46,366 nt of DNA from a virus. Taxonomy: Duplodnaviria > Heunggongvirae > Uroviricota > Caudoviricetes. Shown one piece after another: positions 29,950 to 46,366 of this stretch. Under the pieces are notes generated by a model. The model was given only the letters and a program-made list of their open reading frames with translations. It was not told the origin of the DNA and ran no database searches. A program made the position numbers and the translations under genes. The stretch is from the IMG/VR virus record IMGVR_UViG_2778261428_000001, one strand, 5' to 3'. Numbering within the stretch: position 1 is the stretch's first letter; the number at the start of each line of letters is the position of its first letter.

Positions 29950-30257
29950 ATATATTTATGATGAGGACGCTCGTGCTTATTGGCAGGATTTTCAATCTTA
30001 AAGGAGTACTGATGCTGCAGATAAGACTCAACTTTTTCTGACAATTTTTCTGCTACTTCCAGGAAGACTTGCCGGACGCTCCTTCTGGCTGCTGCCTCAT
30101 AAAACTCCAGCGCAGCTCCTTCAACACGGTCCATGGCGACATCCAGGTCAAAAATTTCACCGTCAAAGCGTTCTTTGTCCTGTAAGGCTACAGTTACCGT
30201 AACTTTATTCTCAAAATTACGGACTCCTTTCACAACCAGTTCATAGTCTTGAGTCAT
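29946..30257 (-). CDS. ydfR: DUF1327-family prophage protein YdfR
   Basis: 103-aa ORF between holin and endolysin genes as in Qin. Confidence 0.65.
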
Positions 30258-30261
30258 TGGA

Positions 30262-30477
30262 TTACTCTCCTCTCGCAGCCTTACGCCTGTCTTCTTTAAT
30301 CTTGAAATAAAGATTTGTCAGATACGTCAGCAGGCCAAAAACCAGGCTACCCAGCACACCGATTGCAGCCCACTGTGACGGAGTTACTTTATCGAGTAAC
30401 TGCAATGCCCAGAAACCAGCATTACCCGCCGATGTGCCATAGGCAACACCTGTTGTTAACTTATCCATTGATTTCAT
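30262..30477 (-). CDS. essQ: Holin (phage 21 S-type, class II) with dual-start motif
   Basis: MKSMDKL... dual Met start (holin/antiholin), two TM segments, charged C-terminus ([13 protein letters not shown]). Confidence 0.75.
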
Positions 30478-30696
30478 ATCCTCACCCCGATGTACACGGA
30501 TGGTGCAATATGTTTGAAAAGATCGGAGTCTACGGGGTAGTTTTGACAGCACACGTTGTTCTCAACGGCGCTAAAAAAACATACACATTAAAAATGTGGG
30601 TAATTATTTTGAAAGAAAGTCACATATAAAATAATAATACGAGAAATGTTTTCATATTTAGTGTACTGTATACGGCCATTTATACAGGAAAAGCCT

Positions 30697-30867
30697 ATGT
30701 CAGAACGTAAAGACTCAAAATCACGCCGTAATTATCTCGTTAAATGTTCCTGCCCAAACTGCACCCAAGAGTCAGAACACAGTTTTTCAAGAGTACAAAA
30801 AGGTGCCCTTTTGATCTGCCCTCATTGCAACAAAGTATTCCAGACAAATCTTAAAGCTGTAGCCTGA
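30697..30867 (+). CDS. Small zinc-ribbon protein
   Basis: 56 aa from the internal Met; two CxxC pairs (CSCPNC ... CPHCNK). Confidence 0.4.
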   Translation: MSERKDSKSRRNYLVKCSCPNCTQESEHSFSRVQKGALLICPHCNKVFQTNLKAVA

Positions 30868-30922
30868 TTGATTTTATTAGTAACAAGTATTTTTTATATT
30901 TTAATAATATATTTAAAGCAGA

Positions 30923-30949
30923 TAATAAAAAACCCGCCTGAGCGGGTTT
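30923..30949 (-). terminator. Stem-loop with flanking A/T runs (possible bidirectional terminator)
   Basis: aaaaaacccgcctgagcgggttt; T-run on the minus-strand transcript. Confidence 0.45.
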
Positions 30950-31230
30950 GAGATTGTGGTGCTTTTTGTGGGAGTCATCCACTTACGCACTTTGTTTTGC
31001 GATGCCAGCAGTTAGCTTCTGCTGTGAAACTATTCATGCAGCAAACCTGCACTTCACCACAATGGTTAGCATACTTTTCCTGATTAAGATTTTGCCAAAT
31101 ATGCTGGCCATTGTTTCATGTATTGGACCTCCTTACTTTTTATTAAAGAGATCCAATATTCACTACTCTGTCCGTATCTCTACTCAGGCATCAGCCTTCT
31201 TCGTTATCGTATACAGACGAGCGATGAATT

Positions 31231-31446
31231 TTAATCAGTAATGATGACATTTGCTGCTGCAGGACCTTTAGCACCACTCTCTATAGAGAAGGTAACCTTT
31301 TGACCTTCAAATAAGGTTCGATAATTATCATTCTGAATCGCAGAAAAATGCACAAACACATCTTTACTACCATCAACAGGAGAAATAAAGCCGAAACCTT
31401 TATCAGCGTTAAACCATTTTACTAAACCAGTCATTTTATTTGACAT
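31231..31446 (-). CDS. cspB: Cold shock protein (CspA family), CspB-like
   Basis: 71 aa, [38 protein letters not shown]...; position next to cspF remnant and Q as in Qin. Confidence 0.8.
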
Positions 31447-31756
31447 TCTACATTCCTTAACTTGAGCCTTTCGGCATAAATGGTTTGCATAACAGAAACG
31501 ACTTCGTACTTAATTGGAGAGACTCAAAGAAGGAATAAGTGAATAACACCTGAAATGAGAACTGCTTTAGTAAACTACTTCGTATATCGTCTGTTCTTCA
31601 AACCGACGCAGTCATTAACTCATAGTTGAACATATGAAGCAATGTTTATTTTAGACATCCAGCCACCTTCAACCCTATCAAAAAAGTAGTTTTCTCCAGG
31701 AACGTGTGTATGGTGCACCAGGTTATCAGTATTAAGGAGTTTTTCTGTCCCCTAAA

Positions 31757-31960
31757 ATGACAGGAATTGTCAAAAACTTTGACTACAAAAGCAGCAAAGG
31801 TCTTATATTCCCATCCGATGGCGTATCGATGCCCAGCTTCACGTTTCAGCTCTCAATCTTCGAGATGCAGAAGAAATTACCACAGGATTACGCGTGGAAT
31901 TTTGCCGGATAAATGGTTCGCGTGGACCTTCAACTGCCAATGTTTATCCCGGGATGAGAT
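31757..31960 (+). pseudogene. cspF: cspF-like cold shock gene, frameshifted
   Basis: Frame A encodes [22 protein letters not shown] then diverges; a second frame encodes the CspF-like continuation ...[27 protein letters not shown] with no in-frame stop at the expected end; frameshift near 31825. Confidence 0.5.
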
Positions 31961-31993
31961 TCAATATCTCTATTGCCCCATTTAAAGCACAAA

Positions 31994-32028
31994 AACCCGC
32001 TTATAAGCGGGTTTTCTACTTTTTTCTA
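31994..32028. terminator. Bidirectional rho-independent terminator; candidate tR' for the late transcript
   Basis: aaaaacccgcttataagcgggttttctactttttt: GC stem with T-runs on both strands, about 100 bp downstream of Q. Confidence 0.55.
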
Positions 32029-32054
32029 AACGTCGGATACACAAAGCCCATCGT

Positions 32055-32095
32055 TGAGAAAATCTTATCCATGTTTTTTGAAAAATGCAAACATC
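32055..32095 (-). promoter_or_regulatory. Candidate late promoter PR' (Q-dependent)
   Basis: Minus strand: TTGCAT (-35), 17-bp spacer, TAAGAT (-10), located between the Q stop and the downstream hairpin. Confidence 0.35.
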
Positions 32096-32121
32096 ATGTC
32101 GCCATCTTCAGCAAAAATCAT

Positions 32122-32874
32122 TTATCTCGTCACCTTCCTCAATTGCGCTTCCGCGTATGCTTCTTCCTGCCAGCACTTTGTTACCAGTTTATCAATGACG
32201 TCCGCATACCCCTTATACCACTGATAATCGGTCAGGTCTGGTACCAGCTTCTGGACATGACGTCGTGCCAGCGTGGTCGGTAAACGACTAAACCGGTTTC
32301 CATTACAACGCCCACAAATCTTATATACCGGTACGCCATGAAACCGGGTTCTTTTTTCATCCAGAACAATCCCTTTACCCTTACACCCTCTGCACGCTGT
32401 GCTGACTTCGCCCTTACCATGGCAATGCTGACATAGTTCCTTTACCCATTCTTCCTTGATTACAGATTCCCCGCGTCTGTAGTGTTTCACCACTTCGCGC
32501 AATACATTATAAAATCCCGTACCTGAACAATGCTCACAGCGAGCCTTACTTGCCGCAGACCTGGAGTAATCAGCAAAGGCAAAATTCACGAGGTAAGGAA
32601 TAATCTGTAACCGGCTTTCTTCACTCAATTTGTTCAATGTCGGGTTATCCAGTGCCATCGCGTAATTTAGCAGGCCTTCAATCGCAAACTGAGGGTCCTG
32701 AACACCAACTTTTGCCAGAAATAAGGCCAACCCAAGTGGTGCTTTCGACTGCACCATCCCCTGCGCTGCCATTACATCCGTAATTGTTAAACAACCGGTG
32801 CCTGTCGCTGGAGCGTCATCGCTCAATTTTAGAGATTTTGGGGAGTAATATTTTGGTAAGGCTTCAAGGTTCAT
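32122..32874 (-). CDS. quuQ: Late gene antiterminator Q (phage 82 Q-type)
   Basis: 250 aa with Cys-rich zinc-binding motifs ([32 protein letters not shown]). Confidence 0.85.
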
Positions 32875-32887
32875 GCTCGTTCTCCAC

Positions 32888-33976
32888 TTACGCCAGTACG
32901 CCAGTTGCCAGCGCGCGATCGATAAAACGAAATATCAGCTCCAGTTGGGAGCCATACTTCTCTTCAAATGCCACTGTATCCGTATGCAGCTCGTTGTGAT
33001 GCTTTCTGCACAAAGGCAACACAAAGAGATCATGTGCTTTTGTTCCCATTCCGCCCTGCCCGTGACCAATCAGATGATGCGGATCGTCGGCTGGCATACC
33101 GCAGCAAGCACACGGCTGTGTCTTAACCCAACGAGTGTATTTCTCCTTAACCCAGCGGCGACGTTTAGGCAGCTTCATGAAAGATTCCGGAGACTCTGGA
33201 TCAACGGTGATGCTTACCACCGTCTTTTCCTGTGGTGGTTTTTGTTGCTGGTGGGCGTAAGGCAACGGTGCAAGATTTTTTGTGCGTTGTTTCAATATGC
33301 TGGTGGCGGTCTGCTCTCCCGGTACGATGTCGCTTTCGCGGTACACCGAGCAGATTTTTTCCGCTGGTAATCCCAGCGAACGACGCGATACAGCCTCAGG
33401 TAGTGCATCCACCACCTGATTGCAGACCGCCCACCAGGATAATTCAGCCAAAGATAATTCCCGCTCCTGCGTACCGCTTATTGCGTGACGGATGACGTCA
33501 ATCACCCATGCTGTCAGATTTTGTTGAGCAAGCAGCTCCAGTGATTCCGATGTCTGGTCACGCAGTTGGTTGTCGCAGTGCCAGCACAACACCATTGCGC
33601 CGGTACCATAACGGTGAATGACTGTTTCAGTGTGATGGTAATCGCCATTAGGCCACTGGCAGGATGTAACATGACGTAATAGCCAGTCAGACAATGCGCC
33701 AACGCCGCCAGCAGCACGAATCACCCGTTCGTTACTAAAAAACGGCAGCAATGTTTTGTCTTCCGCCAGCGGCTGGCGAACGGCAGGAACGACTCCGGAT
33801 GGCAGATTACGCATGCTTTTTGGTTCCGGTTCCACCAGCACTCGAGGATTATGAAATATCTGTATGGATTCACGGCCCGGCTTAAGGACCACCAGCCCAA
33901 GCTCAGGCACCAGAACAGGTCTAAGTAATACCCGCACGTTACCTCCAGATCCGTTGCTGGAAAGTGCGGGACGCAC
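32888..33976 (-). CDS. ydfU: DUF968-family protein YdfU (C-terminal HNH/zinc-binding-like motif)
   Basis: 362 aa; C-terminus QPCACCGMPADDPHHLIGHGQGGMGTKAHDLFVLPLCRKHHNELH; position upstream of Q. Confidence 0.7.
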   Translation of the reverse strand: MRPALSSNGSGGNVRVLLRPVLVPELGLVVLKPGRESIQIFHNPRVLVEPEPKSMRNLPSGVVPAVRQPLAEDKTLLPFFSNERVIRAAGGVGALSDWLLRHVTSCQWPNGDYHHTETVIHRYGTGAMVLCWHCDNQLRDQTSESLELLAQQNLTAWVIDVIRHAISGTQERELSLAELSWWAVCNQVVDALPEAVSRRSLGLPAEKICSVYRESDIVPGEQTATSILKQRTKNLAPLPYAHQQQKPPQEKTVVSITVDPESPESFMKLPKRRRWVKEKYTRWVKTQPCACCGMPADDPHHLIGHGQGGMGTKAHDLFVLPLCRKHHNELHTDTVAFEEKYGSQLELIFRFIDRALATGVLA

Positions 33977-34217
33977 GTGGTGGGCGTTCGGAGTAAGGCA
34001 ATCTGACTGAGATTATCCAGTGACGGTAGTCGAGACTAAGGGCTTTCTTAACCTCGTATCCGCGCCTGCGGTAAGAATGAATCAGCCATTCGGCCTGTTC
34101 TGCAGTGCATGGAGGGTGCTGGAACCATTCAGACTTGAATGCGTGAGAATACCGCCCGTGCGTGCAGGCAAGAACGGGCGAATTATCAGAATTGTAATAT
34201 TTTGCGTTGCGTGCCAT
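33939..34217 (-). CDS. Hypothetical protein
   Basis: 92-aa ORF overlapping the ydfU start region; may be non-coding. Confidence 0.25.
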   Translation of the reverse strand: MARNAKYYNSDNSPVLACTHGRYSHAFKSEWFQHPPCTAEQAEWLIHSYRRRGYEVKKALSLDYRHWIISVRLPYSERPPRASRTFQQRIWR

Positions 34218-34283
34218 CGGTTTTCTCCGGTGGCACGGTGTTACTCAGCGGGAGTTCAGCCCCGCGCAAGATTGTAGATGAGT

Positions 34284-34535
34284 TTATTCTTCTGAAAAAG
34301 CAGAAAAGCCAGCTTTTATTCCGATCTCTTTCAATGCCTGTAATGAAGTGACAAACTCACCTTCGCGCAAGATAAATCCGTCCGTGACCCGAGCATCCAC
34401 AAAATTAATTAACGCAGCCCCATTCTTTCGCAAACACAGAATGCGGTAATGACTAACAATGTTTCCATTTTCAACGCACACAGCATAGAGGCCATCTTCA
34501 CAAAAAATTTTACGCAGTTCTTCGATGTTCATCAT
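34284..34535 (-). CDS. rem: Small prophage protein (Rem-like)
   Basis: 83-aa ORF immediately downstream of the hok terminator, as rem in Qin. Confidence 0.55.
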   Translation of the reverse strand: MMNIEELRKIFCEDGLYAVCVENGNIVSHYRILCLRKNGAALINFVDARVTDGFILREGEFVTSLQALKEIGIKAGFSAFSEE

Positions 34536-34652
34536 CAGAATCCTTCCGGATAATTAGCTCTCCCCTTTAAGGGACCATCCCTCTTATCCCTGCGCGCTAC
34601 TTAAGTATTTTTGATTCTATTCCGGCACCGTCCAGAACTTCAAACGCGTTGA

Positions 34653-34683
34653 AAATAAAAACAAAAACCCGCCGAAGCGGGTT
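34653..34683 (-). terminator. Rho-independent terminator of hok mRNA
   Basis: Minus-strand transcript reads AACCCGCTTCGGCGGGTT followed by TTTGTTTTTATTTT. Confidence 0.6.
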
Positions 34684-34751
34684 AAGTGCGGGTGCGTTGA
34701 GGATGCCTGCCACATCAGAGGTGGCGAGGGATTTCTCCCTCGCCGGGTCTC

Positions 34752-34907
34752 TTACTCCTCAGGTTCGTAAGCTGTGAAGACAGCGACCTCCGTCTGGCCG
34801 GTTCGGATTCGTACCTCGCAGAGGTCTTTCCTCGTTACCAGTGCCGTCACTATGACGGTTAAACAGATGACGATCAGGGCGATTAACATCGCCTTTTGCT
34901 GCTTCAT
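34752..34907 (-). CDS. hokD: Hok-family membrane toxin (type I toxin)
   Basis: 51-aa product MKQQKAMLIALIVICLTVIVTALVTRKDLCEVRIRTGQTEVAVFTAYEPEE; the longer overlapping frame upstream is consistent with a mok-like leader ORF. Confidence 0.85.
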   Translation of the reverse strand: MKQQKAMLIALIVICLTVIVTALVTRKDLCEVRIRTGQTEVAVFTAYEPEE

Positions 34908-35535
34908 AGCCTGCTTCTCCTTGCCTTCCGGCACGTAAGAGGCTAACCTACATGTGTCTAGCATGAAATTGGCCTCAGATTAATGTTAAGCGTCTTGCCG
35001 GACGCGTAATGTTAACTGGGGCTTTTCTCTATCTGCCTTTGGTGTTCATGCCTGAGGCAGATAGCCTCAAGCACCCGCAGCAATTCTACTTAACTCACGT
35101 CACCTCGCCAATATAAAATCAATCAGAAAGGCGATCCGTAAGAACAACAGCAAGGCAATAAATTGCCATTACAGCCGCAATAGCTAGCGCACATTTGAGA
35201 ACCAGCACGACAACCTCCTGTATTGGACGTACACCAGTCCTGATGAATATGAGGCTGTCTCGTCAGTGATTCAATACAACTATTGGGTATAGTTTCTCTG
35301 ATTTTTTCTGTGGAAATGGGGCTCAACCACTAGTCACCACCAGCACTTCTTTTAATACGCAAAGTCCGACACAAGCTAACCTTCTAGTCCGCTTTGAGCG
35401 AGGAGCGGAAGTTTATAGACATTTCTTGCACTGCGTTGTCTAATCAATTAGGAGCTGGTAACGTGCCCTGAGTAAATAAGCCCGCATATACGGGCGCTAT
35501 GTACGCTCTGTTTTGTATGGTGCAAAGTGCCCCGT

Positions 35536-37350
35536 CTATCTGAAACGCTCAAACAGTGCAACCATTCCTTCAGGAGCGATATCTCTGACCTGGGCTCCTT
35601 GCCGCTCAACCCACTTACCAGCTATATGTGAAGGGGTATCCTGACCTAAAATTTCGAAGACGAAAACCGTCTTATCGAAGTATCGAACGCATTTAAGATG
35701 AGTGTTTATGTAGGACTTAAGCGGTTCTGAAAGTCCTGAGCGTCCTACCCGATCAGAGATGTCTTGGAACATCTGGTCAAGGTTCTTTCCAGCGTGGTTC
35801 GCTTCGTGATCAACACCAGTTATATGGAAGCCGTTATAAGATAAAGCCTTGCTTCCGAAAATCTCCTGAACTCTTGTTGCAGTATGCGCATTTTCAGCAA
35901 CCCCTACAAGAACATAGCCCTTGTGTCCTCTGCCGATATTAGCAATAGCAGCGCAGGTCTCCATAATTTTTTCGAAGGAGCGTTCATCAAAGGAAGGTGA
36001 TGGGTCTAAAGTATAGAAACCTTGTTTAAAATCGTAGGCCGCCTGCTCAGTTATTGAGTTAGTGAGTAAATTTTGGAGCTTCGTGATCCAATGAACTTTT
36101 GCAGGATCTGGATTTTGATCGTTTTCAAAAAAGCCCTGAATCCAACCAATTATTGAATCGACCATTCTACTCCGGTTGTCAGCCCCCCATCTCCCTCCAT
36201 CTTGAACCTGAATATTCCTACCGCAATCTTTCAGCCGCCCAATGAGGCCCGCACTATCTGAAACCACCATACCCCTTTTAATTATCAGGTCATGCATGGC
36301 GAGAAAGACCACCTGAAAGTAACGGGGGACTGGATTACCACCATTTCCGTTAGGAAAAATCAAACCAGAGAATGTCGTTTGAGCCTGACTAAGAAGTAGG
36401 ATTATCGCATCATGTACTCTTTGATAATCAAGATCGACTAGCTCCCCGGTTCTCTTTTTAATAGCTTGATCAATCGCTTCGAATCTTGCTTTGCTGGCTA
36501 AAGCTTCCGGGGATATTGCTCCATAGTAGTCATCTAGAAGCTCTGTACGCGAGGCCAGAGGTTTGTCAGAAACCATATAAGCAAGAATGTCCGCCACTAT
36601 CTCTTCATCCCGGCTCTGTCTTAACTGCTCCTTCGTCAATATTCCGTTAACAATCCAGAAGACGCTATCGGCACTAATGCCGTAGTCTAAATCCTTGTTC
36701 GTGATGCTAATTTTTTTCATCTCGCTTAAGAGCAAGAGATCCGCGTTAGATGTGTCACCACGAACTCTTGCGGAGATCTTCCGAACACATTCCGCAAACA
36801 CATTTGTAGCACCTGCTGCACGCAACTCCTGTCGTGAGAGCTGACGTCCACCTGAGTTAATTCGCCTGAACACTTCCTCAACTGAGTCTCTCTCGGCTGC
36901 TTCATAAATTGAAAGCGGGACAGGATATGATGCTATTGCAAGACACTGGCTTCGATCAAGGAGTGGCATCTTCTGATCAATGACTCCGCGATCTAATAGG
37001 TCTTTCGTCGTCGCGAACGTATTTAAATCAAAGTAGAATCCATTAAATGAAAAATCGTTCGAGATAAAAGACATGATGGCATTCATACGCTGCATCCCAT
37101 CAATAATCTCGAGAGTGCCGTCTTTTCTCCCAAGAGGTTCTGCTAACAAAATGATAGGTATCGGGAATCCCTTGATTATCGAGTCAATAAAATTTTGTTT
37201 TTCCTCAATAGTCCAAATCAATTTACGTTGATACTGTCGATTCACAACGTATTTTTTATCCTGATAGTTGATAAACACTCGCTCAACTTGTTCGCCACGA
37301 ACTATTAGTTCTTGTTGTAACGTTGCCATTATGTTGCCGTCCTGAGCCAT
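35536..37350 (-). CDS. DUF262 (ParB/GmrS-like) domain protein with probable Schlafen/AlbA_2-like C-terminal domain; candidate anti-phage defence or type IV restriction-like enzyme
   Basis: 604 aa; N-terminal DUF262 signature (NRQYQRKLIWTIEEKQNFIDSIIKGFPIPIILL ... LEIIDGMQRMNAI); C-terminal segment resembling AlbA_2 core (ANIGRGHKGYVLVGVAENAH); bounded by AT-rich tracts (37351..37765 and 34965..35535). Confidence 0.7.
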   Translation of the reverse strand: MAQDGNIMATLQQELIVRGEQVERVFINYQDKKYVVNRQYQRKLIWTIEEKQNFIDSIIKGFPIPIILLAEPLGRKDGTLEIIDGMQRMNAIMSFISNDFSFNGFYFDLNTFATTKDLLDRGVIDQKMPLLDRSQCLAIASYPVPLSIYEAAERDSVEEVFRRINSGGRQLSRQELRAAGATNVFAECVRKISARVRGDTSNADLLLLSEMKKISITNKDLDYGISADSVFWIVNGILTKEQLRQSRDEEIVADILAYMVSDKPLASRTELLDDYYGAISPEALASKARFEAIDQAIKKRTGELVDLDYQRVHDAIILLLSQAQTTFSGLIFPNGNGGNPVPRYFQVVFLAMHDLIIKRGMVVSDSAGLIGRLKDCGRNIQVQDGGRWGADNRSRMVDSIIGWIQGFFENDQNPDPAKVHWITKLQNLLTNSITEQAAYDFKQGFYTLDPSPSFDERSFEKIMETCAAIANIGRGHKGYVLVGVAENAHTATRVQEIFGSKALSYNGFHITGVDHEANHAGKNLDQMFQDISDRVGRSGLSEPLKSYINTHLKCVRYFDKTVFVFEILGQDTPSHIAGKWVERQGAQVRDIAPEGMVALFERFR

Positions 37351-37765
37351 TTATAGAGATATAACGATTAGGCAAAACCTGCCCTACATCACACGTACGT
37401 ATCATAATAATTGAAAAGTCATAAAAATAAATATTCTTCTACAGCATCGCCCGGCATACTTCAAATGCACAAAAATAAAACACTATAAATCAATATCTTA
37501 TGGAATTATTTTTGTAAAGGTGAATTGAACTTGTTACTCACTAAATTCTCCTGAATTTATGTTTTTTTTGCTAATGGACAATAATGTTGAACTGTAGATA
37601 TTTGTTTTAATTGGAATTAATTTTCAGAAAATGCTCGTATCTATGACAGCTTTTGGCACAAAGCGGACAACCACGCCAGATCTACCCTGTGCCATGAAAA
37701 ATGAGAATGTCAATTCACTCCTGAACTAATGCTTTTTAATCTAGTAACGTCTAAAATACCTAACA

Positions 37766-38167
37766 TTATCCCTGATAAAATGCCAGTATGCGCTGCATAA
37801 CTTCACTCATCCGGCACTCGCGACAGATTATGTTTAGGCGACTGTCGTAGCGACGTATTTCTCCATCAGGTAACGACCAGATAAGGTCCGGATCAACCAC
37901 AGCTGTTTTCTTCACCTTTGCCCTCGAGAGTTTTTTGCGGGCGTTTTGCCAGTCCTTACGCGCCTGTTCAGACGGGAATAACCCGTAGCCGGAGTTGTAT
38001 ACATCGCCACTGGCTACCAGCTCTCTGGCAAGAACGCTCATCAGATATCTAGTCGCACCTGTTTTAGCTTCCAGTTGCCGTAACGTCTCACGACCGCTCT
38101 GGCGCACGAGTTCCACCACCTGCCCTTTAATTTTTTCCCGCTCTTCTTGTGTAAAAACTTTTGCCAC
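37766..38167 (-). CDS. Hypothetical protein (position of replication protein P or nin-region gene)
   Basis: 133-aa basic ORF downstream of the O-like gene; no family recognised. Confidence 0.35.
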   Translation of the reverse strand: MAKVFTQEEREKIKGQVVELVRQSGRETLRQLEAKTGATRYLMSVLARELVASGDVYNSGYGLFPSEQARKDWQNARKKLSRAKVKKTAVVDPDLIWSLPDGEIRRYDSRLNIICRECRMSEVMQRILAFYQG

Positions 38168-38207
38168 AAGTCCCCCTTAAAATTACCTCATGACCTGAAA
38201 TCAAAAC

Positions 38208-39173
38208 TTATCCTCTGAAACCAGGCGGAATTTCTGTATCCGGTTCAGAAATATGATTAACACAACGCTGTACAGGTGAACGCCCTAGGCGGATGACCAG
38301 TTCGTCCCATTTTTCGCGGAGCTTTGACGGGCTCATGATGTTTTTTACCCAGAATGGATCCCGCTGTACCCGACCAAACATTTCACAAATTTGTCTGTGG
38401 CTTCTGCCATCCAGCATCCGCATTGTGCGCACATCATTGGCCCAGACAGTCCAGTTAGGCTCTTTTGGTCGCATGATCTCGCCATCATCACTGGCGGCCT
38501 GTTCGTAGAGACCCACGATCCGCCCCCATATCCACTGCGCACACGCCAGATCCTCCTGGCTACCCCACTGGCGTTTTTTCGCACTAAACACAACTGCGCC
38601 AGGGTGCCGGATTAAAAAATCCTGTTCAGCCGTCTGCGGGTCCGGTTGCGAAGCTTCCGGACGAAAAGTGTTTTTATTCTCTGTAGTAATCTCTGTTGTA
38701 TTCTCTGTAGGATCATCGGGCCATTTTGACCCGATGACATTGGGTCGTTTTGAACCAATGGAGCGTTTCATTTTGACCTCTTCCATCGTGTCATTTTGAC
38801 CTGATGGAGCGGCGCATTTTGAACCGATGGATTCGCTCAATTTGCCATCATCTAAAAGCTCGCTCCCATAGTTAATCGTGTAGAAATTGGTCATATCGCG
38901 CTTTGATTTATTGAGCTTTTCACAACGCAAAAGCCCCAGCGTTTTCAGACTTGCAAACGCGCGCTTTAACGTTGACTCTGACCAGAATGGAAACTGTTCC
39001 AGCCATTGTTCCGTTGTGTTGTAAATCCAGCGAACACCATCACATTCCATGCCGGAATTGGTATCTCTCAACCAGTAATGCAACTGCTGCAACACAATGG
39101 CTTCATTTAAGCCAATCTTCATCGCAAGCTGTGTGTTTATAACCAGTGGGCGTTCAGCAAAAAGAAGGCTCAT
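38208..39173 (-). CDS. Replication initiation protein (lambda O-like, iteron-binding N-terminus plus C-terminal helicase-loader recruitment domain)
   Basis: N-terminal winged-helix-like region; origin iterons lie inside the gene and encode a repeated IGSK peptide; start taken at an internal Met after the upstream gene's stop (ORF track extends to 39227). Confidence 0.6.
   Translation of the reverse strand: MSLLFAERPLVINTQLAMKIGLNEAIVLQQLHYWLRDTNSGMECDGVRWIYNTTEQWLEQFPFWSESTLKRAFASLKTLGLLRCEKLNKSKRDMTNFYTINYGSELLDDGKLSESIGSKCAAPSGQNDTMEEVKMKRSIGSKRPNVIGSKWPDDPTENTTEITTENKNTFRPEASQPDPQTAEQDFLIRHPGAVVFSAKKRQWGSQEDLACAQWIWGRIVGLYEQAASDDGEIMRPKEPNWTVWANDVRTMRMLDGRSHRQICEMFGRVQRDPFWVKNIMSPSKLREKWDELVIRLGRSPVQRCVNHISEPDTEIPPGFRG
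38720..38835. repeat. Replication origin iterons (5 direct repeats, about 23-bp period) inside the O-like gene
   Basis: cattttgacccgatgaca / cgttttgaaccaatggag / cattttgacctcttccatcg / cattttgacctgatggag / cattttgaaccgatggat, starting near 38722, 38745, 38769, 38792 and 38815; a second short repeat ttctctgtag occurs twice at 38686-38710. Confidence 0.6.
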
Positions 39174-39675
39174 AATTCCATCCAGCTTTTTGTTGGTATT
39201 GCTGTCGATACGCAAGTTTGAAAGCAATTGCTTTTTCTATAAGTTCGTCAGTTTCACGATCCACTACGGCAGGATCAGCAAAAAGCAGTCCGGACTCCAC
39301 CACATCGCCATATTCTTTGTTTAACCCGGCGATCATGTACGTGATGCTTTTTCCGTCACTAATTTCACGATACAACCTGAAATCATTAATCCGGATAGCC
39401 TCCATAATTGCAGGCACTAGCGCCGTGAACTTTTCACGCTTATCCCTAGTGTCGATAGCCTTCCAGCGTTCGAATATCTTCACTCGATTAACGCCAAGCG
39501 CTCGCTGATCAACCGCGCCACCTTCATCTGTGACACGCTGAACATCGATGTTCGGGCGCTCTTTCAAAGCCCAGAATGCTTCAGTGATTAATATCGTCGC
39601 CTGCTCCTGTGTCATTCCTGGTCGACATATCCAGGCATCCAGAGCCTCACGAGCCTGTTCAGGAGTGATTTTCAT
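39154..39675 (-). CDS. Hypothetical protein in the cII-equivalent position (possibly YdaT-like)
   Basis: 173-aa ORF immediately downstream of the cro-like dicC, translationally coupled; family not confidently recognised. Confidence 0.4.
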   Translation of the reverse strand: MKITPEQAREALDAWICRPGMTQEQATILITEAFWALKERPNIDVQRVTDEGGAVDQRALGVNRVKIFERWKAIDTRDKREKFTALVPAIMEAIRINDFRLYREISDGKSITYMIAGLNKEYGDVVESGLLFADPAVVDRETDELIEKAIAFKLAYRQQYQQKAGWNYEPSFC

Positions 39676-39886
39676 TGTTCAACCGCCCCGCCCGCTTCGT
39701 CTTACGATATTCGTCATAAACTTTGGGATCATACTGAAGCTCCCCGCCAGATGCCTCCTGTAGACGCATCGCGCGACCTTCAGGAACTAGCTCTTGCCAT
39801 TGAGAAACAGCAGATGGGTCAACGCCAGCAGCTTTCGCTACTTTGGCTTTCGTACCGTAAAAATTAATTACGTCTGATTTAAACAT
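39659..39886 (-). CDS. dicC: Cro-like repressor DicC
   Basis: C-terminal region LVPEGRAMRLQEASGGELQYDPKVYDEYRKTKRAGRLNNENHS recalled as DicC; divergent from dicA; start taken at MFKSD (ORF track extends to 39913). Confidence 0.7.
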   Translation of the reverse strand: MFKSDVINFYGTKAKVAKAAGVDPSAVSQWQELVPEGRAMRLQEASGGELQYDPKVYDEYRKTKRAGRLNNENHS

Positions 39887-39963
39887 CGCACCTCCAATAT
39901 TGAGTTTTCTCAATGCTAATCACTCAAGGAATCTCAAGTCAAGGGTTATTAAGATATCTAAAT
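39887..39963. promoter_or_regulatory. Divergent promoter/operator region of the dicA-dicC immunity switch
   Basis: 77-bp intergenic region containing the inverted repeat ATTGAG-TTTT-CTCAAT (39899..39914) and repeated TCAAG(G) motifs. Confidence 0.45.
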
Positions 39964-40371
39964 ATGAACGAGAAAACTTTAGGTCAACGCATTAGAGAAA
40001 GACGTAAGCAGGTAGGCTTAAGTCAAAACGGTTTAAGCAAAGCTGCTGGCGTATCTGGCTCATCAATTTCATTATGGGAAAGTGACCATACAGCCCCGCG
40101 CGGGCAAAATTTGCATCGCCTCGCCGAGGTATTGCAATGTTCACCAACCTGGATACTGTTTGGCGACGAGGACAAAACACCAGCTCCCCCTGTTTCACTC
40201 GATAGTGCCTTAGACTTATCGGAAGATGAGTTAGAGATGCTGCGTTTGTATCGCGCACTTCCTAAATCAGAGCAACAAGCACAACTCAGCGAACTCCGCG
40301 CCCGCGTTGAGAATTTTAATCGCCTGTTCACCGAGCTATTAGAGGCTCGCAAACGCAACAAGCATCAATAA
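39964..40371 (+). CDS. dicA: cI-like HTH (XRE family) repressor DicA
   Basis: HTH segment LGQRIRERRKQVGLSQNGLSKAAGVSGSSISLWE and conserved C-terminal block (LQCSPTWILFGDEDK ... RARVENFNRLFTELLEARKR); start taken at MNEKTLG. Confidence 0.8.
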   Translation: MNEKTLGQRIRERRKQVGLSQNGLSKAAGVSGSSISLWESDHTAPRGQNLHRLAEVLQCSPTWILFGDEDKTPAPPVSLDSALDLSEDELEMLRLYRALPKSEQQAQLSELRARVENFNRLFTELLEARKRNKHQ

Positions 40372-40563
40372 TCATCCCTTCACAAAATTTTAAAGCCTTA
40401 CATTTCAATGTATTGGCTTTATCTTGCGCCAATACTTGAGTTTTCTCATCAAAAAACCTTGACGAAAAATAATGAGAAAACTAAATTACCTCCATCAACA
40501 CACCGCACGGTGTTCTCAGCAAACAGTTCCGCTACCCCGGCGTTAAGGGGAAATGAGGTCAGC

Positions 40564-40719
40564 ATGGATACTATCGATCTTGGCAACAGCGAATCTCTGG
40601 TATGTGGCGTGTTCCCCAACCAGGACGGTACGTTCACCGCGATGACGTATACCAAAAGCAAAACGTTTAAAACCGAAAATGGTGCCCGTCGCTGGCTGGA
40701 AAGAAACTCAGGTGAGTGA
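40564..40719 (+). CDS. ydfA: Small prophage protein YdfA-like
   Basis: 51 aa MDTIDLGNSESLVCGVFPNQDGTFTAMTYTKSKTFKTENGARRWLERNSGE. Confidence 0.65.
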   Translation: MDTIDLGNSESLVCGVFPNQDGTFTAMTYTKSKTFKTENGARRWLERNSGE

Positions 40720-40720
40720 T

Positions 40721-41296
40721 ATGGATTTCGACACAATCATGGAAAAGGCTTACGAAGAATACTTCGAAGGCCTTGCCGAAGGCGAAGAAGCTCTCAGCTT
40801 CAGTGAGTTTAAACAGGCACTCAGAATAAGAATGTGCTCTCACAATGACGCGGAGCACAAATATGAGAAGCAAAATCAGACCGCAGAAAATTTTGTTCTG
40901 GAACCCGGTGAAACGCTTTTCAAAATTCCCGTTACATGCCCCATTTGCGGTTTTACATCAGAAGAACTTGACGACTCCTGTAACAATCAGGAAACAACCA
41001 AGTATGTCGAAGATGATACCGAGTGCGCACGAAGAACGATTATATCCACGAGTCCAAACTCCAGGACCAATAAATCTCACTTTGAGAGGGTGATTAATCC
41101 ACTCCCCCAAACCAATAAAAAAGATGCCGGAGGACAAAAAAACCAATGGAACAACGGGATATCTGTCAAAAAAAGACGTTCCATTAAAGACAAACAACGC
41201 AGCGCCAACAACTGTAAGCGCTTTATACCAGTAATCAATTTTCATGTTCTTAAGCGGATTTATTGGTGGTTGCGACATTGCTTAATGAATCCTTAA
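40721..41296 (+). CDS. YdfB/YdfC-like protein (single longer ORF here)
   Basis: 191-aa ORF starting MDFDTIMEKAYEEYFEGL with internal CxxC (CPICGF); start codon 1 nt after the ydfA stop. Confidence 0.5.
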   Translation: MDFDTIMEKAYEEYFEGLAEGEEALSFSEFKQALRIRMCSHNDAEHKYEKQNQTAENFVLEPGETLFKIPVTCPICGFTSEELDDSCNNQETTKYVEDDTECARRTIISTSPNSRTNKSHFERVINPLPQTNKKDAGGQKNQWNNGISVKKRRSIKDKQRSANNCKRFIPVINFHVLKRIYWWLRHCLMNP

Positions 41297-41557
41297 AACT
41301 GTAGTGATTTTAAGGATACCACCTCGCCTGACGTGGTTAAAAGCAGGCACATAACGCGAAAGCGCACGGCGAGGTAGCTGGTTCATAGATAGCCTGTCGT
41401 TAAATTTTCGTCGACCGTGCGCTTCCGGTTGTGGCACTCCGCGAAATGGCGCGGCGGTAAGTATGGCGGGGTTATTCCTTCCCCGTTGAGGACACCGGGT
41501 TGTCAGGTTGACCATACGCTTAAGTGACAACCCCGCTGCAGCGCCCTCTGTTATCAA

Positions 41558-41616
41558 TTTTCTGGTGACGTTTGGCGGTATCAGTTTTACTCCGTGACTG
41601 CTCTGCCGCCCTTTTT
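41558..41616 (+). ncRNA. dicF: DicF small regulatory RNA (ftsZ-targeting Hfq-dependent sRNA)
   Basis: Sequence tttctggtgacgtttggcggtatcagttttactccgtgactgctctgccgcccttttt recalled as the DicF RNA, ending in its intrinsic terminator; located between ydfC-like and dicB as in Qin. Confidence 0.8.
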
Positions 41617-41785
41617 GAAGTGAATTTTGTGATGTGGTGAATGCGGCTGAGCGCACGCGGAACAGTTAAAACCAAAAACAGTGTTATGGGTGGATTCTCT
41701 GTATCCGGCGTTAATTGTTAACTGGTTAACGTCACCTGGAGGCACCAGGCACTGCATCACAAAATTCATTGTTGAGGACGCGATA

Positions 41786-41974
41786 ATGAAAACGTTATTA
41801 CCAAACGTCAATACGTCTGAAGGTTGTTTTGAAATTGGTGTCACTATCAGTAACCCAGTATTTACTGAAGATGCCATTAACAAGAGAAAACACGAACGGG
41901 AGCTATTAAATAAAATATGCATTGTTTCAATGCTGGCTCGTTTACGTCTGATGCCAAAAGGATGTGCACAATGA
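41786..41974 (+). CDS. dicB: Cell division inhibitor DicB (MinC activator)
   Basis: 62 aa MKTLLPNVNTSEGCFEIGVTISNPVFTEDAINKRKHERELLNKICIVSMLARLRLMPKGCAQ. Confidence 0.85.
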   Translation: MKTLLPNVNTSEGCFEIGVTISNPVFTEDAINKRKHERELLNKICIVSMLARLRLMPKGCAQ

Positions 41975-42162
41975 ATTCAGCATTTGCGCTTGTTCTGACA
42001 GTTTTTCTTGTTTCCGGAGAGCCAGTTGATATTGCAGTCAGTGTTCACAGGACAATGCAGGAGTGTATGACTGCAGCAACCGAACAGAAAATTCCCGGTA
42101 ACTGTTACCCGGTCGATAAAGTTATTCACCAGGATAATATCGAAATCCCGGCAGGTCTTTAA
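41971..42162 (+). CDS. ydfD: Small membrane lysis protein YdfD
   Basis: 63 aa MNSAFALVLTVFLVSGEPV... with N-terminal TM segment; start overlaps the dicB stop (ATGA). Confidence 0.7.
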   Translation: MNSAFALVLTVFLVSGEPVDIAVSVHRTMQECMTAATEQKIPGNCYPVDKVIHQDNIEIPAGL

Positions 42163-42255
42163 AACAGTTCCGTAATAAATATCCGGTTTCATTCTTATAT
42201 GCCAGCAATGGCAGGGATTTGTTCATCCTTAAATCTGTCATGAGGTTAAAACAAA

Positions 42256-44727
42256 ATGAATAAAGTCTTTATTTGCGCCGCTATTCCTGACGAACTGGCA
42301 ACAAGGGAAGAAGGCGCTGTGGCTGTAGCCACAGCCATTGAAGCTGGCGACGAACGCCGTGCTCGAGCAAAATTTCACTGGCAGTTCCTGGAACATTATC
42401 CGGCTGCTCAGGACTGCGCTTATAAATTTATTGTCTGCGAGGATAAACCTGGCATACCCCGCCCTGCCCTCGATTCATGGGATGCTGAATATATGCAGGA
42501 AAACCGCTGGGATGAGGAGTCTGCTTCTTTTGTCCCGGTTGAGACTGAATCCGATCCGATGAACGTCACTTTTGACAAGCTGGCCCCTGAAGTACAGAAC
42601 GCTGTCATGGTTAAGTTCGACACATGTGAAAACATCACCGTTGATATGGTTATTAGCGCACAGGAATTGTTGCAGGAAGACATGGCAACATTCGACGGAC
42701 ATATCGTTGAAGCGTTGATGAAAATGCCAGAAGTTAACGCCATGTATCCGGAGCTTAAGTTGCACGCCATTGGGTGGGTTAAGCATAAATGTATTCCTGG
42801 TGCTAAATGGCCCGAAATTCAGGCAGAGATGCGCATCTGGAAAAAACGTCGCGAAGGTGAACGCAAGGAAACCGGAAAATACACGTCTGTTGTTGATCTC
42901 GCCCGCGCCAGAGCCAATCAACAGTACACTGAAAATTCAACAGGAAAAATCAGCCCGGTCATTGCTGCCATTCATCGCGAATACAAGCAGACATGGAAAA
43001 CACTGGATGACGAACTGGCCTACGCTCTCTGGCCTGGTGATGTGGATGCCGGAAACATTGACGGCAGCATCCATCGCTGGGCAAAAAAAGAAGTTATCGA
43101 CAACGACCGCGAAGACTGGAAGCGTATCTCGGCATCAATGCGCAAACAGCCTGATGCCCTTCGCTACGACCGCCAAACTATTTTTGGCCTTGTCCGTGAG
43201 CGTCCGATCGACATTCACAAAGATCCCGTAGCACTGAACAAATATATCTGCGAATACCTGACGACAAAGGGCGTGTTTGAGAATGAAGAAACAGACCTGG
43301 GCACTGTTGATGTTCTCCAGTCATCAGAAACACAAACTGATGTAGTGGAAACTGAGGTATCTGATATCCCAAAAAATGAAACCGCGCCGGAAGCTGAACC
43401 ATCTGTAGAGCGTGAGGGGCCGTTCTATTTCCTCTTCGCAGATAAGGACGGCGAAAAATACGGTCGCGCAAACAAACTTTCTGGTCTGGATAAGGCACTG
43501 GCTGCTGGCGCCACTGAAATCACAAAAGAAGAATATTTTGCCCGAAAAAATGGCACATACACGGGCTTACCGCAAAATGTAGATACCGCTGAAGATTCAG
43601 AACAACCAGAGCCGATAAAAGTTACCGCTGACGAAGTAAACAAAATTATGCAGGCAGCCAATATCAGCCAGCCTGACGCCGATAAGTTGCTTGCTGCATC
43701 ACGTGGTGAATTTGTTGAAGGGATTAGTGACCCGAATGATCCGAAATGGGTTAAGGGGATCCAGACCCGCGATTCTGTGAACCAGAACCAGCATGAATCG
43801 GAACGGAACTACCAAAAAGCGGAACAAAACAGCCCAAATGCGTTACAAAACGAGCCAGAAACGAAACAGCCTGAACCAGTGGCGCAACAGGAAGTGGAAA
43901 AAGTCTGCACCGCCTGCGGTCAGACCGGCGGCGGCAACTGCCCTGATTGTGGCGCGGTGATGGGCGACGCAACATACCAAGAAACATTCTATGAAGAGTA
44001 TCAGGTTGAAGTTCAGCAAGATGATCCGGAGGAAATGGAAGGCGCTGAACATCCACACAAGGAGAACACTGGCGGCAATCAGCATCACAATAGCGATAAT
44101 GAAACTGGCGAGACGGCAGATCACTCAATTAAGGTGAACGGTCATCACGAAATCACATCCACCAGCAGGACGTGTGACCATCTAATGATCGACCTTGAAA
44201 CCATGGGAAAAAATCCTGATGCCCCGATCATCTCAATAGGTGCAATATTTTTCGATCCGCAAACCGGAGATATGGGACCGGAATTTAGTAAGACTATCGA
44301 TCTGGAAACTGCTGGCGGAGTCATTGATCGGGACACCATTAAATGGTGGCTTAAGCAATCACGCGAAGCGCAATCTGCCATTATGACCGATGAAATCCCG
44401 TTAGATGATGCACTGTTACAATTGCGGGAATTTATCGACGAAAACTCCGGTGAATTTTTTGTTCAGGTTTGGGGAAATGGAGCCAACTTCGACAACACGA
44501 TTTTGCGCCGTTCATACGAACGGCAGGGGATCCCCTGCCCGTGGCGTTACTACAACGATCGCGATGTACGCACAATCGTTGAGCTGGGGAAAGCCATAGA
44601 TTTCGATGCCAGAACGGCTATTCCATTCGAAGGTGAGCGCCATAATGCACTTGATGACGCCCGTTACCAGGCAAAATACGTTTCAGTTATCTGGCAAAAA
44701 CTGATCCCGAGTCAGGCTGATTCTTAA
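42256..44727 (+). CDS. Large prophage protein with C-terminal DEDDh-type 3'-5' exonuclease domain (full-length YdfE-like)
   Basis: 823 aa; C-terminus has exonuclease motifs (MIDLETMG; WGNGANFDNTIL; HNALDDARYQAKY); acidic low-complexity linker and a zinc-ribbon-like CTACGQTGGGNCPDCG. Confidence 0.65.
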   Translation: MNKVFICAAIPDELATREEGAVAVATAIEAGDERRARAKFHWQFLEHYPAAQDCAYKFIVCEDKPGIPRPALDSWDAEYMQENRWDEESASFVPVETESDPMNVTFDKLAPEVQNAVMVKFDTCENITVDMVISAQELLQEDMATFDGHIVEALMKMPEVNAMYPELKLHAIGWVKHKCIPGAKWPEIQAEMRIWKKRREGERKETGKYTSVVDLARARANQQYTENSTGKISPVIAAIHREYKQTWKTLDDELAYALWPGDVDAGNIDGSIHRWAKKEVIDNDREDWKRISASMRKQPDALRYDRQTIFGLVRERPIDIHKDPVALNKYICEYLTTKGVFENEETDLGTVDVLQSSETQTDVVETEVSDIPKNETAPEAEPSVEREGPFYFLFADKDGEKYGRANKLSGLDKALAAGATEITKEEYFARKNGTYTGLPQNVDTAEDSEQPEPIKVTADEVNKIMQAANISQPDADKLLAASRGEFVEGISDPNDPKWVKGIQTRDSVNQNQHESERNYQKAEQNSPNALQNEPETKQPEPVAQQEVEKVCTACGQTGGGNCPDCGAVMGDATYQETFYEEYQVEVQQDDPEEMEGAEHPHKENTGGNQHHNSDNETGETADHSIKVNGHHEITSTSRTCDHLMIDLETMGKNPDAPIISIGAIFFDPQTGDMGPEFSKTIDLETAGGVIDRDTIKWWLKQSREAQSAIMTDEIPLDDALLQLREFIDENSGEFFVQVWGNGANFDNTILRRSYERQGIPCPWRYYNDRDVRTIVELGKAIDFDARTAIPFEGERHNALDDARYQAKYVSVIWQKLIPSQADS

Positions 44728-44799
44728 TGTTCAACTGTCGCCGGTTGTGACTGGTATTCTGCAACCGGCGCTCGTCTGATGTAAGAGATAAAGAAATCG

Positions 44800-45051
44800 A
44801 TGAGCGAAGTAATCATGATTGTCTCTCCCGGCAAATGGGTATCCGAAGAGCAGTTAATTGCGCTGAAAGGAATAAAAAAAGGTACGTTAAAAAAGGCCCG
44901 GGAAAAATCGTTTATGGAAGGAAGGGAATATAAGCATGTCGCTCATGACGGTATGCCATGGGATAACAGTCCATGCTTTTACAACCTGGAAGAGATTGAT
45001 CGCTGGATTGAGCGCCAGGCATCAGCGAGACCAAGACGTCATCTTACTTGA
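44800..45051 (+). CDS. Excisionase-like small DNA-binding protein
   Basis: 83-aa ORF directly upstream of the integrase; call by position only. Confidence 0.45.
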   Translation: MSEVIMIVSPGKWVSEEQLIALKGIKKGTLKKAREKSFMEGREYKHVAHDGMPWDNSPCFYNLEEIDRWIERQASARPRRHLT

Positions 45052-45070
45052 CTAAAAGCCACACTAACTA

Positions 45071-46366
45071 ATGAGAGAAGTTGAAATGAAATATCCAACA
45101 GGCGTGGAAAACCATGGAGGGAAATTACGTATCTGGTTTGTTTATAAAGGCGTAAGAGTCAGGGAAAATCTGGGGGTTCCTGACACAGCAAAAAACAGGC
45201 GCGTTGCAGGTGAACTACGCTCCTCTGTTTGTTACGCAATAAAAACTGGTGTTTTCGACTATGCAAAACAGTTTCCCTCCTCACGCAATCTGGAAAAATT
45301 TGGTGAGGCCCGACAAGATTTAACCATAAAAGAACTGGCTGAAAAATTTCTGGCACTGAAAGAAACTGAAGTCGCCAAAACATCACTCAACACATACCGT
45401 GCCGTCATCAAAAATATCCTGAGCATAATCGGTGAAAAAAATCTTGCCTCATCGATTAATAAAGAAAAATTACTGGAGGTTCGTAAAGAGCTACTGACTG
45501 GATACCAGATCCCCAAAAGTAACTATATTGTTACACAACAAGGGAGATCGGCTGTAACTGTAAATAATTACATGACAAATCTTAACGCCGTGTTCCAGTT
45601 TGGTGTTGATAACGGTTACCTGGCAGATAATCCGTTTAAGGGGATCTCGCCATTAAAGGAATCAAGAACCATTCCGGATCCTCTTTCGCGGGAGGAATTT
45701 ATCTGTCTTATCGATGCGTGCAGAAATCAGCAAGCAAAAAATTTATGGTGTGTTTCTGTTTATACTGGCGTTCGCCCTGGTGAGCTGTGTGCACTTGGAT
45801 GGGAGGACATAGATCTGAAAAATGGAACAATGATGATCAGGAGAAATTTAGCAAAAGACCGTTTCACGGTACCAAAAACACAGGCGGGAACCAATCGGGT
45901 CATTCATCTTATTAAGCCAGCAATCGACGCTCTCCGGAGTCAGATGACATTAACGAGACTGAGCAAAGAGCATATCATTGATGTTCACCTCAGAGAGTAT
46001 GGCAGAACAGAAAAACAAAAATGCACCTTTGTTTTTCAACCTGAAGTGTCAGCGAGAGTAAAAAATTATGGTGACCATTTTACCGTTGACTCAATAAGGC
46101 AGATGTGGGACGCAGCGATAAAACGTGCCGGACTCCGCCATCGAAAATCATATCAGTCGAGACATACTTATGCCTGCTGGTCGCTGACAGCTGGTGCTAA
46201 CCCGGCATTTATAGCAAACCAGATGGGCCATGCAGATGCGCAAATGGTATTTCAGGTATACGGAAAATGGATGTCTGAAAACAATAATGCACAGGTAGCT
46301 TTGTTAAATACACAGTTAAGCGAGTTTGCCCCAACCATGCCCCATAACGAAGCAATGAAAAATTAA
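45071..46366 (+). CDS. intQ: Tyrosine integrase (phage integrase family)
   Basis: 431 aa; C-terminal catalytic region with conserved R...HxxR...Y arrangement (RHTYACWSL ... MGHADAQMVFQVYGKW); stop codon at the window end. Confidence 0.9.
   Translation: MREVEMKYPTGVENHGGKLRIWFVYKGVRVRENLGVPDTAKNRRVAGELRSSVCYAIKTGVFDYAKQFPSSRNLEKFGEARQDLTIKELAEKFLALKETEVAKTSLNTYRAVIKNILSIIGEKNLASSINKEKLLEVRKELLTGYQIPKSNYIVTQQGRSAVTVNNYMTNLNAVFQFGVDNGYLADNPFKGISPLKESRTIPDPLSREEFICLIDACRNQQAKNLWCVSVYTGVRPGELCALGWEDIDLKNGTMMIRRNLAKDRFTVPKTQAGTNRVIHLIKPAIDALRSQMTLTRLSKEHIIDVHLREYGRTEKQKCTFVFQPEVSARVKNYGDHFTVDSIRQMWDAAIKRAGLRHRKSYQSRHTYACWSLTAGANPAFIANQMGHADAQMVFQVYGKWMSENNNAQVALLNTQLSEFAPTMPHNEAMKN

Follow-up and report, generated by a model that had tools for sequence, protein, structure and literature searches.

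The locus and its gene

The window (the whole stretch of 46,366 nucleotides analysed here) is a Qin-like lambdoid prophage that occupies the same chromosomal site as Qin of E. coli K-12, adjoining rspB. The gene under study lies on the minus strand, where the list of open reading frames confirms the frame of 604 aa at 35536..37350 that had been described before. This form starts at an in-frame upstream ATG at 37350. A second ATG at 37329 yields a protein of 597 aa, and it is this one that the RefSeq annotators and all homologues, themselves of 597 aa, use; an AGGA stands roughly 10 nt 5' of ATG 37329, and nothing of the kind precedes the first ATG. Residue numbers below refer to the 597-aa form unless the 604-aa form is named. 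The parts of the gene are as follows.

35536..37329, minus strand: coding sequence of the DUF262-Schlafen protein (597 aa plus stop; RefSeq WP_182424363.1)
36814..37263, minus strand: DUF262 / GmrSD_N domain (ParB/sulfiredoxin fold, NTPase type), residues 23-172
37087..37101, minus strand: DGMQR motif (DGQQR-class nucleotide-pocket motif), residues 77-81, from the translation
36100..36789, minus strand: mostly helical middle region, residues 181-410, from AF2 secondary structure
35539..36099, minus strand: Schlafen / AlbA_2-fold domain, predicted RNase effector, residues 411-597
36025..36048, minus strand: Schlafen catalytic motif Ex4(E/D)xK, E428-QAAY-D433-F-K435 (translation EQAAYDFK)

RefSeq names the protein 'DUF262 domain-containing protein', PHROGs has a family that covers its full length but whose function is unknown, no NCBIfam model exists for it, and among phage GenBank records there is no full-length homologue (best coverage 43%).

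A slot with exchangeable cargo

The gene order in the window is hokD, the DUF262-Slfn gene, DUF977 and O, and in K-12 Qin it is hokD-relE-relB-ydfV-flxA. Homology to K-12 stops at 34921 and is back at 39396, and this comparison bears out the preliminary description, which had put the gene between hokD and the replication module, where K-12 Qin carries relE/relB/flxA. Other E. coli prophages keep the hokD and DUF977 flanks and differ in what lies between them: an AIPR (abortive-infection) family gene with a hypothetical gene, a DUF4209 gene, relBE, a Doc toxin, a Sll1717-type P-loop ATPase, methyltransferases, QueH or a hydrolase. Because such varied cargo sits between shared flanks, the term 'moron hotspot' that had been applied to the site is justified. 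Compared with two prophages that carry other cargo, the conserved flanks end at 35380-35401 and restart at 37640-37658; the cargo therefore spans about 35402-37639, and it consists of the gene, a terminator-like hairpin and some 300 bp of AT-rich DNA upstream. The local elements are listed here.

35387..35406, strand not applicable: left arm of an inverted repeat that falls on the left edge of the variable slot
37649..37668, strand not applicable: right arm of this inverted repeat, falling on the right edge of the slot
35480..35495, minus strand: terminator-like GC hairpin followed by a T-run (consensus scan), 41 nt past the stop codon and inside the cargo
37330..37639, minus strand: AT-rich upstream part of the cargo (GC 0.32), the presumed site of the gene's own promoter

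The left arm of the inverted repeat also borders the DUF4209 cargo of another prophage (L090). Of the long AT-rich non-coding tracts that had been proposed on both sides of the gene, the upstream one stands (37351-37765, GC 0.32), but the downstream one does not (34965-35535, GC 0.46). Nor is the downstream flank empty: it holds the terminator-like hairpin (35495-35480) and, beyond the cargo on the side of hokD, that gene's sok/hok-leader element at 34902-35076 (Rfam RF01794, E = 1.5e-27). A scan for minus-strand sigma-70 matches of at least 9/12 upstream of the gene gave none, and manual reading gave weak candidates only.

An N-terminal DUF262 domain with an invariant nucleotide pocket

The N-terminal DUF262 domain with a DGQQR-class motif, proposed from the letters of the sequence, is confirmed by a match to Pfam PF03235 (GmrSD_N) at E = 2e-22, over residues 30-179 of the 604-aa form, and by the motif itself, DGMQR. 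In an alignment of homologues the D, G, Q and R of DGMQR are invariant in 46/46, and so is E74; the role of DGQQR-class motifs has been reviewed (PMC10952713). BrxU and SspE are structural matches of the window protein, in line with an N-terminal DUF262 having a DGQQR-type NTP pocket. In both of these the DUF262 domain is an NTPase, and a nucleotide cycle or the sensing of a ligand switches the attached nuclease. Foldseek matches also raised a ParB-like partition or Noc-like function, which we rejected because the protein has no HTH or dimerisation domains and these matches span the ParB/Srx-fold N-domain only.

Following the DUF262 domain, residues 181-410 have no Pfam match and no family assignment. 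Within this stretch, variation across the family peaks at residues 261-410, whose mean majority fraction is 0.33-0.40 compared with 0.60 for DUF262 and 0.50 for the Schlafen core.

A C-terminal Schlafen domain in place of DUF1524

How, then, does the protein end? Enzymes with a DUF262 domain such as GmrSD, BrxU and SspE share the N-terminal domain and its DGQQR-type NTP pocket with the window protein, but their effector is a DUF1524 His-Me/HNH DNase or nickase, whereas the window protein has a Schlafen RNase-type domain, fused to DUF262 within one open reading frame. The absence of the DUF1524 HNH partner, remarked on earlier, holds in a Pfam search at E <= 1. The window protein is thus not a member of the GmrSD / BrxU / SspE family, since it has no DUF1524 match and its C-terminal fold is that of a Schlafen.

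The evidence for the Schlafen domain comes from several directions. The string ANIGRGHKGYVLVGVAE at 35893-35946, which the preliminary description had quoted as AlbA_2/Schlafen-like, falls inside the domain with the Schlafen/AlbA_2 fold and is the conserved N..G..G core of that fold, so that the earlier reading of the C-terminus is upheld. The motif Ex4(E/D)xK, which defines Schlafen nucleases (PMC13056530), is conserved throughout the alignment: its E and its K are each found in 46/46 homologues, its second acidic position is D in 31/46 or E in 15/46, and positions 479 and 509 are acidic in all cases. Direct searches with the window protein are silent. With hmmscan it has no match to Pfam SLFN_AlbA_2 (PF04326) even at E <= 1, phmmer against the PDB gives no direct sequence support for a Schlafen domain, and a narrow C-terminal profile of 20 sequences found chance-level matches and no Schlafens in the PDB. 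Its homologues do match PF04326 (26/32 close and 41/46 diverse full-length ones, with a best E of 3.3e-11), and the relatives in UC4224, on IncF plasmids and in KE47 score above the gathering cutoff. The link between the window protein and PF04326 is accordingly a transitive one, drawn through its homologues, and it is the fold, the catalytic motif and the family-level PF04326 matches together that establish the C-terminal Schlafen domain.

The best PADLOC matches, Menshen NsnA (9e-28) and PD-T4-2_A (5.5e-18), cover residues ~21-194 only. Both act in systems of several genes whose effectors are different (e.g. an OLD-type nuclease), and neither has a Schlafen domain. Partner genes of Menshen (NsnABC) or PD-T4-2 turned up neither in the window nor around any homologue examined; with a partial PADLOC match and no partner genes, the window protein does not belong to either system.

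A solitary and horizontally mobile gene

The gene is solitary and horizontally mobile. That it has no operon partner had been noted in the prophage, and the same is seen in more distant hosts: the copies of K. variicola, P. oryzihabitans and J. lividum are on their own, with unrelated housekeeping genes around them (the tmRNA gene is about 200 bp away in Klebsiella), and the Klebsiella, Pseudomonas and Janthinobacterium contexts show no obvious defence islands. Klebsiella, Lelliottia, Serratia, Pseudomonas, Paracoccus, Blastochloris and others have proteins that are 78-92% identical to it. When the E. coli and Klebsiella copies are compared as DNA, the homology (86%) is confined to 35537-37384, which is essentially the open reading frame, and the GC content of the gene is 0.42-0.44 in every host, against flanks of 0.57-0.65. 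In E. coli itself the gene is rare, being present in 16 of 5,426 complete genomes; 13 of these copies are undamaged, with an identity of at least 99.7%, 2 are frameshifted and 1 is interrupted by an IS.

An exhaustive search at E <= 1e-30 returned 267 clusters (50% identity level), a family of collinear proteins of ~600 aa from Proteobacteria, Firmicutes, Actinobacteria and Spirochaetes. Some 40 full-length members come from viral contigs of IMG/VR, and their GC content is nearly always far below that of their own locus. The DUF262-Slfn family comprises at least 6 sequence types in E. coli.

Window type: Qin slot, 16 genomes
IncF-plasmid type: adjoins pemIK, most copies truncated
P2 S/V-interval type: 28 genomes
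P2 gpA-gpQ type: E. coli W and UMNK88, 18 genomes
Relative of the P2 gpA-gpQ (E. coli W / UMNK88) type: 9 genomes
UC4224 type: 3 genomes

A relative with a measured anti-phage phenotype

The combination of domains had been put forward as possibly uncharacterised, which it no longer is. Perez Taboada et al. (Nat Microbiol 2026) catalogued 5,930 prokaryotic Schlafen proteins, their Slfn domains mapped with the Pfam PF04326 HMM, of which 1.8% are fused to DUF262, and assayed seven enterobacterial genes under native promoters (PMC13056530). One of these, EcoSlfn7, is a DUF262-Slfn fusion of E. coli UC4224 that acts on a broad range of phages and lowers T7 plating 538-fold (PMC13056530). For EcoSlfn7 there are plating data only; the work on mechanism was done on RorSlfn5, a different fusion, which on a phage trigger cleaves tRNA in the anticodon arm, with no SOS induction and no DNA damage, and whose sensor is an Ig-like domain binding the T5 tail assembly chaperone (PMC13056530).

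Which gene of UC4224 is EcoSlfn7? The strain has a chromosome (NZ_CP104472.1) and a plasmid (NZ_CP104473.1), and we found no DUF262 gene on the plasmid. Neither the window gene nor the P2 S/V-hotspot variant qualifies, as UC4224 is not among their carriers, and for the IncF variant it is not visibly among them. The E. coli W-type variant, as the query of a distant search, did lead to a gene on the chromosome, at 4519514-4521283 of NZ_CP104472.1, which encodes WP_028985442.1 (589 aa) in a P2-like prophage. This gene has the replication endonuclease/DinI genes on one side and the portal gene on the other, and so occupies the gpA-gpQ interval, a documented anti-phage hotspot of P2 (PMC9122126). 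The protein matches GmrSD_N (1.2e-20) and SLFN_AlbA_2 (30.9 bits, above the 25.3 cutoff), has an Ex4ExK motif of its own, and aligns collinearly with the window protein, the identity being 32% (residues 7-585 of the window protein against 3-585, E = 2e-88). We infer that WP_028985442.1 is EcoSlfn7.

On this identification EcoSlfn7 is like the window protein in its collinear DUF262 domain, helical region and Schlafen domain, in its length (~590-600 aa for the two), in having DG(M/L)QR and Ex4(E/D)xK, and in being encoded by a solitary gene in a prophage cargo hotspot. The two differ in location, the gpA-gpQ (old/tin) hotspot of a P2-like prophage as opposed to a lambdoid Qin-like slot, and in that the Slfn domain of EcoSlfn7 passes the Pfam gathering score, whereas that of the window protein has no match at E <= 1. 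The measured phenotype, ~540-fold on T7, is that of EcoSlfn7 and not of the window protein.

RorSlfn5 shares with the window protein a Schlafen effector with Ex4(E/D)xK, a single-gene organisation and the logic of a sensor plus an effector, but its Slfn domain is N-terminal, its sensor is Ig-like and it has no DUF262 or NTPase module; the tRNase mechanism is demonstrated for RorSlfn5 and for no DUF262 fusion. The nuclease domains of eukaryotic Schlafens and SAMD9 (SLFN11/12/13/5, SAMD9 AlbA_2) are two-lobed and fused to helicase, SAM and other modules, and their sequence identity to the window protein is only 7-18%.

Function and alternative explanations

We read the gene product as a prokaryotic Schlafen that defends against phages as a single polypeptide and has an N-terminal DUF262 (the 'pSlfn7' architecture), and the gene as exchangeable prophage cargo, and we put the probability of this reading at roughly 0.72. 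Defence had been suggested before as the function, and the 32%-identical collinear relative in UC4224 makes it probable; that the window protein is a defence protein of the DUF262-Schlafen class we regard as highly probable. The architecture, the invariant pocket and catalytic motifs, the autonomy of the gene and the defence-type genomic locations are direct observations on this family. The anti-phage phenotype, the Schlafen tRNase activity and the NTPase or switch behaviour of DUF262 are taken from relatives, and would hold for the window protein by analogy.

The preliminary description had drawn an analogy to modification-dependent restriction, which is probably the wrong effector logic. That the protein is a GmrSD-like type IV enzyme acting on phage DNA, with the AlbA_2/Schlafen domain as a DNA-binding or DNA-cutting module replacing DUF1524, we consider unlikely: the nuclease that defines such systems, DUF1524/HNH, is absent, the invariant C-terminal residues are exactly those of the Schlafen RNase motif, and the only biochemically studied prokaryotic Schlafen, RorSlfn5, cleaves tRNA with no SOS induction. 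Furthermore, EcoSlfn7 is strongest on T7, a phage that is not known to have hypermodified DNA. In genome annotation the labels 'DUF262 domain-containing protein' and 'GmrSD restriction endonuclease domain-containing protein' are misleading for the DUF262-Schlafen family.

The toxin-antitoxin cargo (relBE, Doc) that fills the slot in other strains, the adjacent hokD and the pemIK genes beside the IncF-plasmid relative would also fit an addiction or stabilisation toxin of the prophage, like hokD or relBE, or a regulator of the prophage's own cycle, and a Schlafen RNase would be toxic once unleashed. Yet no antitoxin-like partner is conserved beside the gene in any context examined, homologues that stand alone between housekeeping genes have nothing there to stabilise, and a relative cloned alone has a demonstrated anti-phage phenotype, so that a role of this kind in place of defence is quite unlikely. 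That the gene is simply carried along by a cryptic prophage, silent or in decay and at present without a function in the strain, is very unlikely: it has no recognisable promoter, lies in the direction of the early-right operon, which is repressed in a lysogen, and is damaged in 3 of the 16 E. coli copies (2 frameshifts, 1 IS) as the IncF relative is mostly truncated, but the other 13 are intact and nearly identical, the catalytic and nucleotide-pocket residues are all invariant across phyla in a family of 267 clusters, and the cargo brings its own ~300-bp upstream region and terminator.

A possible mechanism

If the gene is indeed a Schlafen defence, the DUF262-Schlafen protein carried by the Qin-like lambdoid prophage would protect the lysogen against other phages. 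In the scheme we propose, the DUF262 module, possibly with the variable helical middle region, would sense a cue of infection; binding or hydrolysis of NTP by DUF262 would release the C-terminal Schlafen RNase; and the RNase would cleave tRNA, such that translation halts and phage production is aborted or reduced. The specific steps of NTP gating and tRNA cleavage, argued by analogy to relatives, are about an even call. More tentative, with the odds somewhat against it, is the idea that DUF262 and the hypervariable residues 261-410 form a switch that is driven by nucleotides, responds to a nucleic acid or protein cue from the phage and directly licenses the Schlafen tRNase. If true, an NTP-gated ParB-fold module controlling an RNase would be a coupling that has been demonstrated for no defence system.

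Implications

The DUF262-Slfn architecture and its defence role are already published, and the window gene is a further member of this kind, probably with that role. What is modestly new here is a subfamily below the detection of the Pfam Schlafen model, its location in a lambdoid prophage and the striking horizontal spread of a single open reading frame across bacterial classes. The window subfamily is too diverged for that model, and the published census may have missed it, in which case both its trigger and the phages it acts on could be particular to it, with lambdoid competitors of the host prophage as one example. The bacterial Schlafen defences, themselves recognised only recently, thereby gain a diverged subfamily that has been transferred widely, and the finding implies that lambdoid (Qin-like) prophages carry such defences, as do P2-like prophages and F plasmids. 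With conserved NTP-pocket and RNase motifs and many variants in E. coli, the family offers a comparative handle on how DUF262 senses and how the RNase is gated.

Junctions of the cargo slot

The variable slot, meaning the cargo segment between hokD and the DUF977/replication genes that holds the DUF262-Schlafen gene, is bounded in the window by a 20-nt inverted repeat whose arms fall exactly on its two junctions:

35387-35406, left arm of the inverted repeat, 20 nt, on the left junction of the slot
37649-37668, right arm of the inverted repeat, 20 nt, on the right junction of the slot

The core of the repeat (GTCCGCTTTG / CAAAGCGGAC) is found at these two junctions only in the whole 46-kb window, and the same arms recur in a second E. 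coli prophage (at positions 1585 and 3679 of locus L090), where they flank a DUF4209 cargo unrelated to the window gene. Among the prophages compared at the slot, a third, which carries an AIPR cargo, lacks the arms, and K-12 Qin has one copy. The repeat might be a split hairpin, or it might be a site that takes part in the exchange of cargo.

The hokD neighbourhood and the state of the prophage

Upstream of hokD the window carries a full leader element:

34902-35076 (-), sok/hok-leader element, Rfam RF01794, 118.8 bits, 5' of hokD

Since homology between the window and K-12 stops at 34921, most of this element is missing before the K-12 hokD, which comes after relBE. Directly downstream of hokD, at 34662-34743 (-), there is a weak match to the model of the Hfq-binding sRNA isrK (25.7 bits, where the gathering score is 50; E = 0.014), which is probably a chance match or a remote relative.

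The window prophage (~30000-46366) looks much less decayed than K-12 Qin: its integrase and excisionase are intact, and it carries a 3'-5' exonuclease gene, replication protein O, a YdaT-family gene and dicB/dicC, whereas the counterpart positions in K-12 Qin hold pseudogenes and IS2.

Relatives of the gene in other replicons

Close copies of the window gene (84-92% amino acid identity), each a single ORF, occur in Klebsiella, Pseudomonas and Janthinobacterium (loci L002, L006 and L007). The Pseudomonas copy is located after guaA, and the Klebsiella copy lies about 200 bp from a tmRNA gene:

L002:8001-9794, Klebsiella copy of the window gene
L002:10000-10362, tmRNA gene (ssrA)

DNA homology among the copies is confined to the ORF, with a GC content of 0.42-0.44 compared to 0.57-0.65 in the flanks, and the surroundings of the copies at these three loci showed neither a transposase or integrase nor repeats.

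At least three additional diverged variants of the family reside in E. coli P2-like prophages (L080:6001-7755; L030:6001-7750; L088:8983-10752), where they occupy two cargo intervals, one bordered by the virion-morphogenesis gene and baseplate V and the other by gpA/DinI and the portal gene. The gpA/DinI-portal variant is found in the laboratory strain E. coli W and the KO11FL strain derived from it, as well as in records that bear the label DH5alpha.

Disrupted copies

Not every copy is intact. Of the 16 copies of the 35536-37350 gene in E. coli, two lack one base and are therefore frameshifted, with an annotation that splits them into two ORFs, and one is broken by an ISVsa5 element; the strains with such copies are 13P477T, E371 and 2017.09.02CC. 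A 38% identical family member is carried on IncF plasmids:

L081:5992-7764, WP_001262767.1, on IncF plasmid pEC295cfr, adjoining pemIK

Genes of this type are present in 803 of 5,426 E. coli genomes (847 E. coli records), and only about 105 of the 803 carriers have the gene at full length. The majority of copies end at nt 1284, the start of the Schlafen domain, and other copies comprise nt 1276-1773 only and are annotated 'RNA-binding domain-containing protein'; thus this plasmid gene is most commonly effector-less or split.
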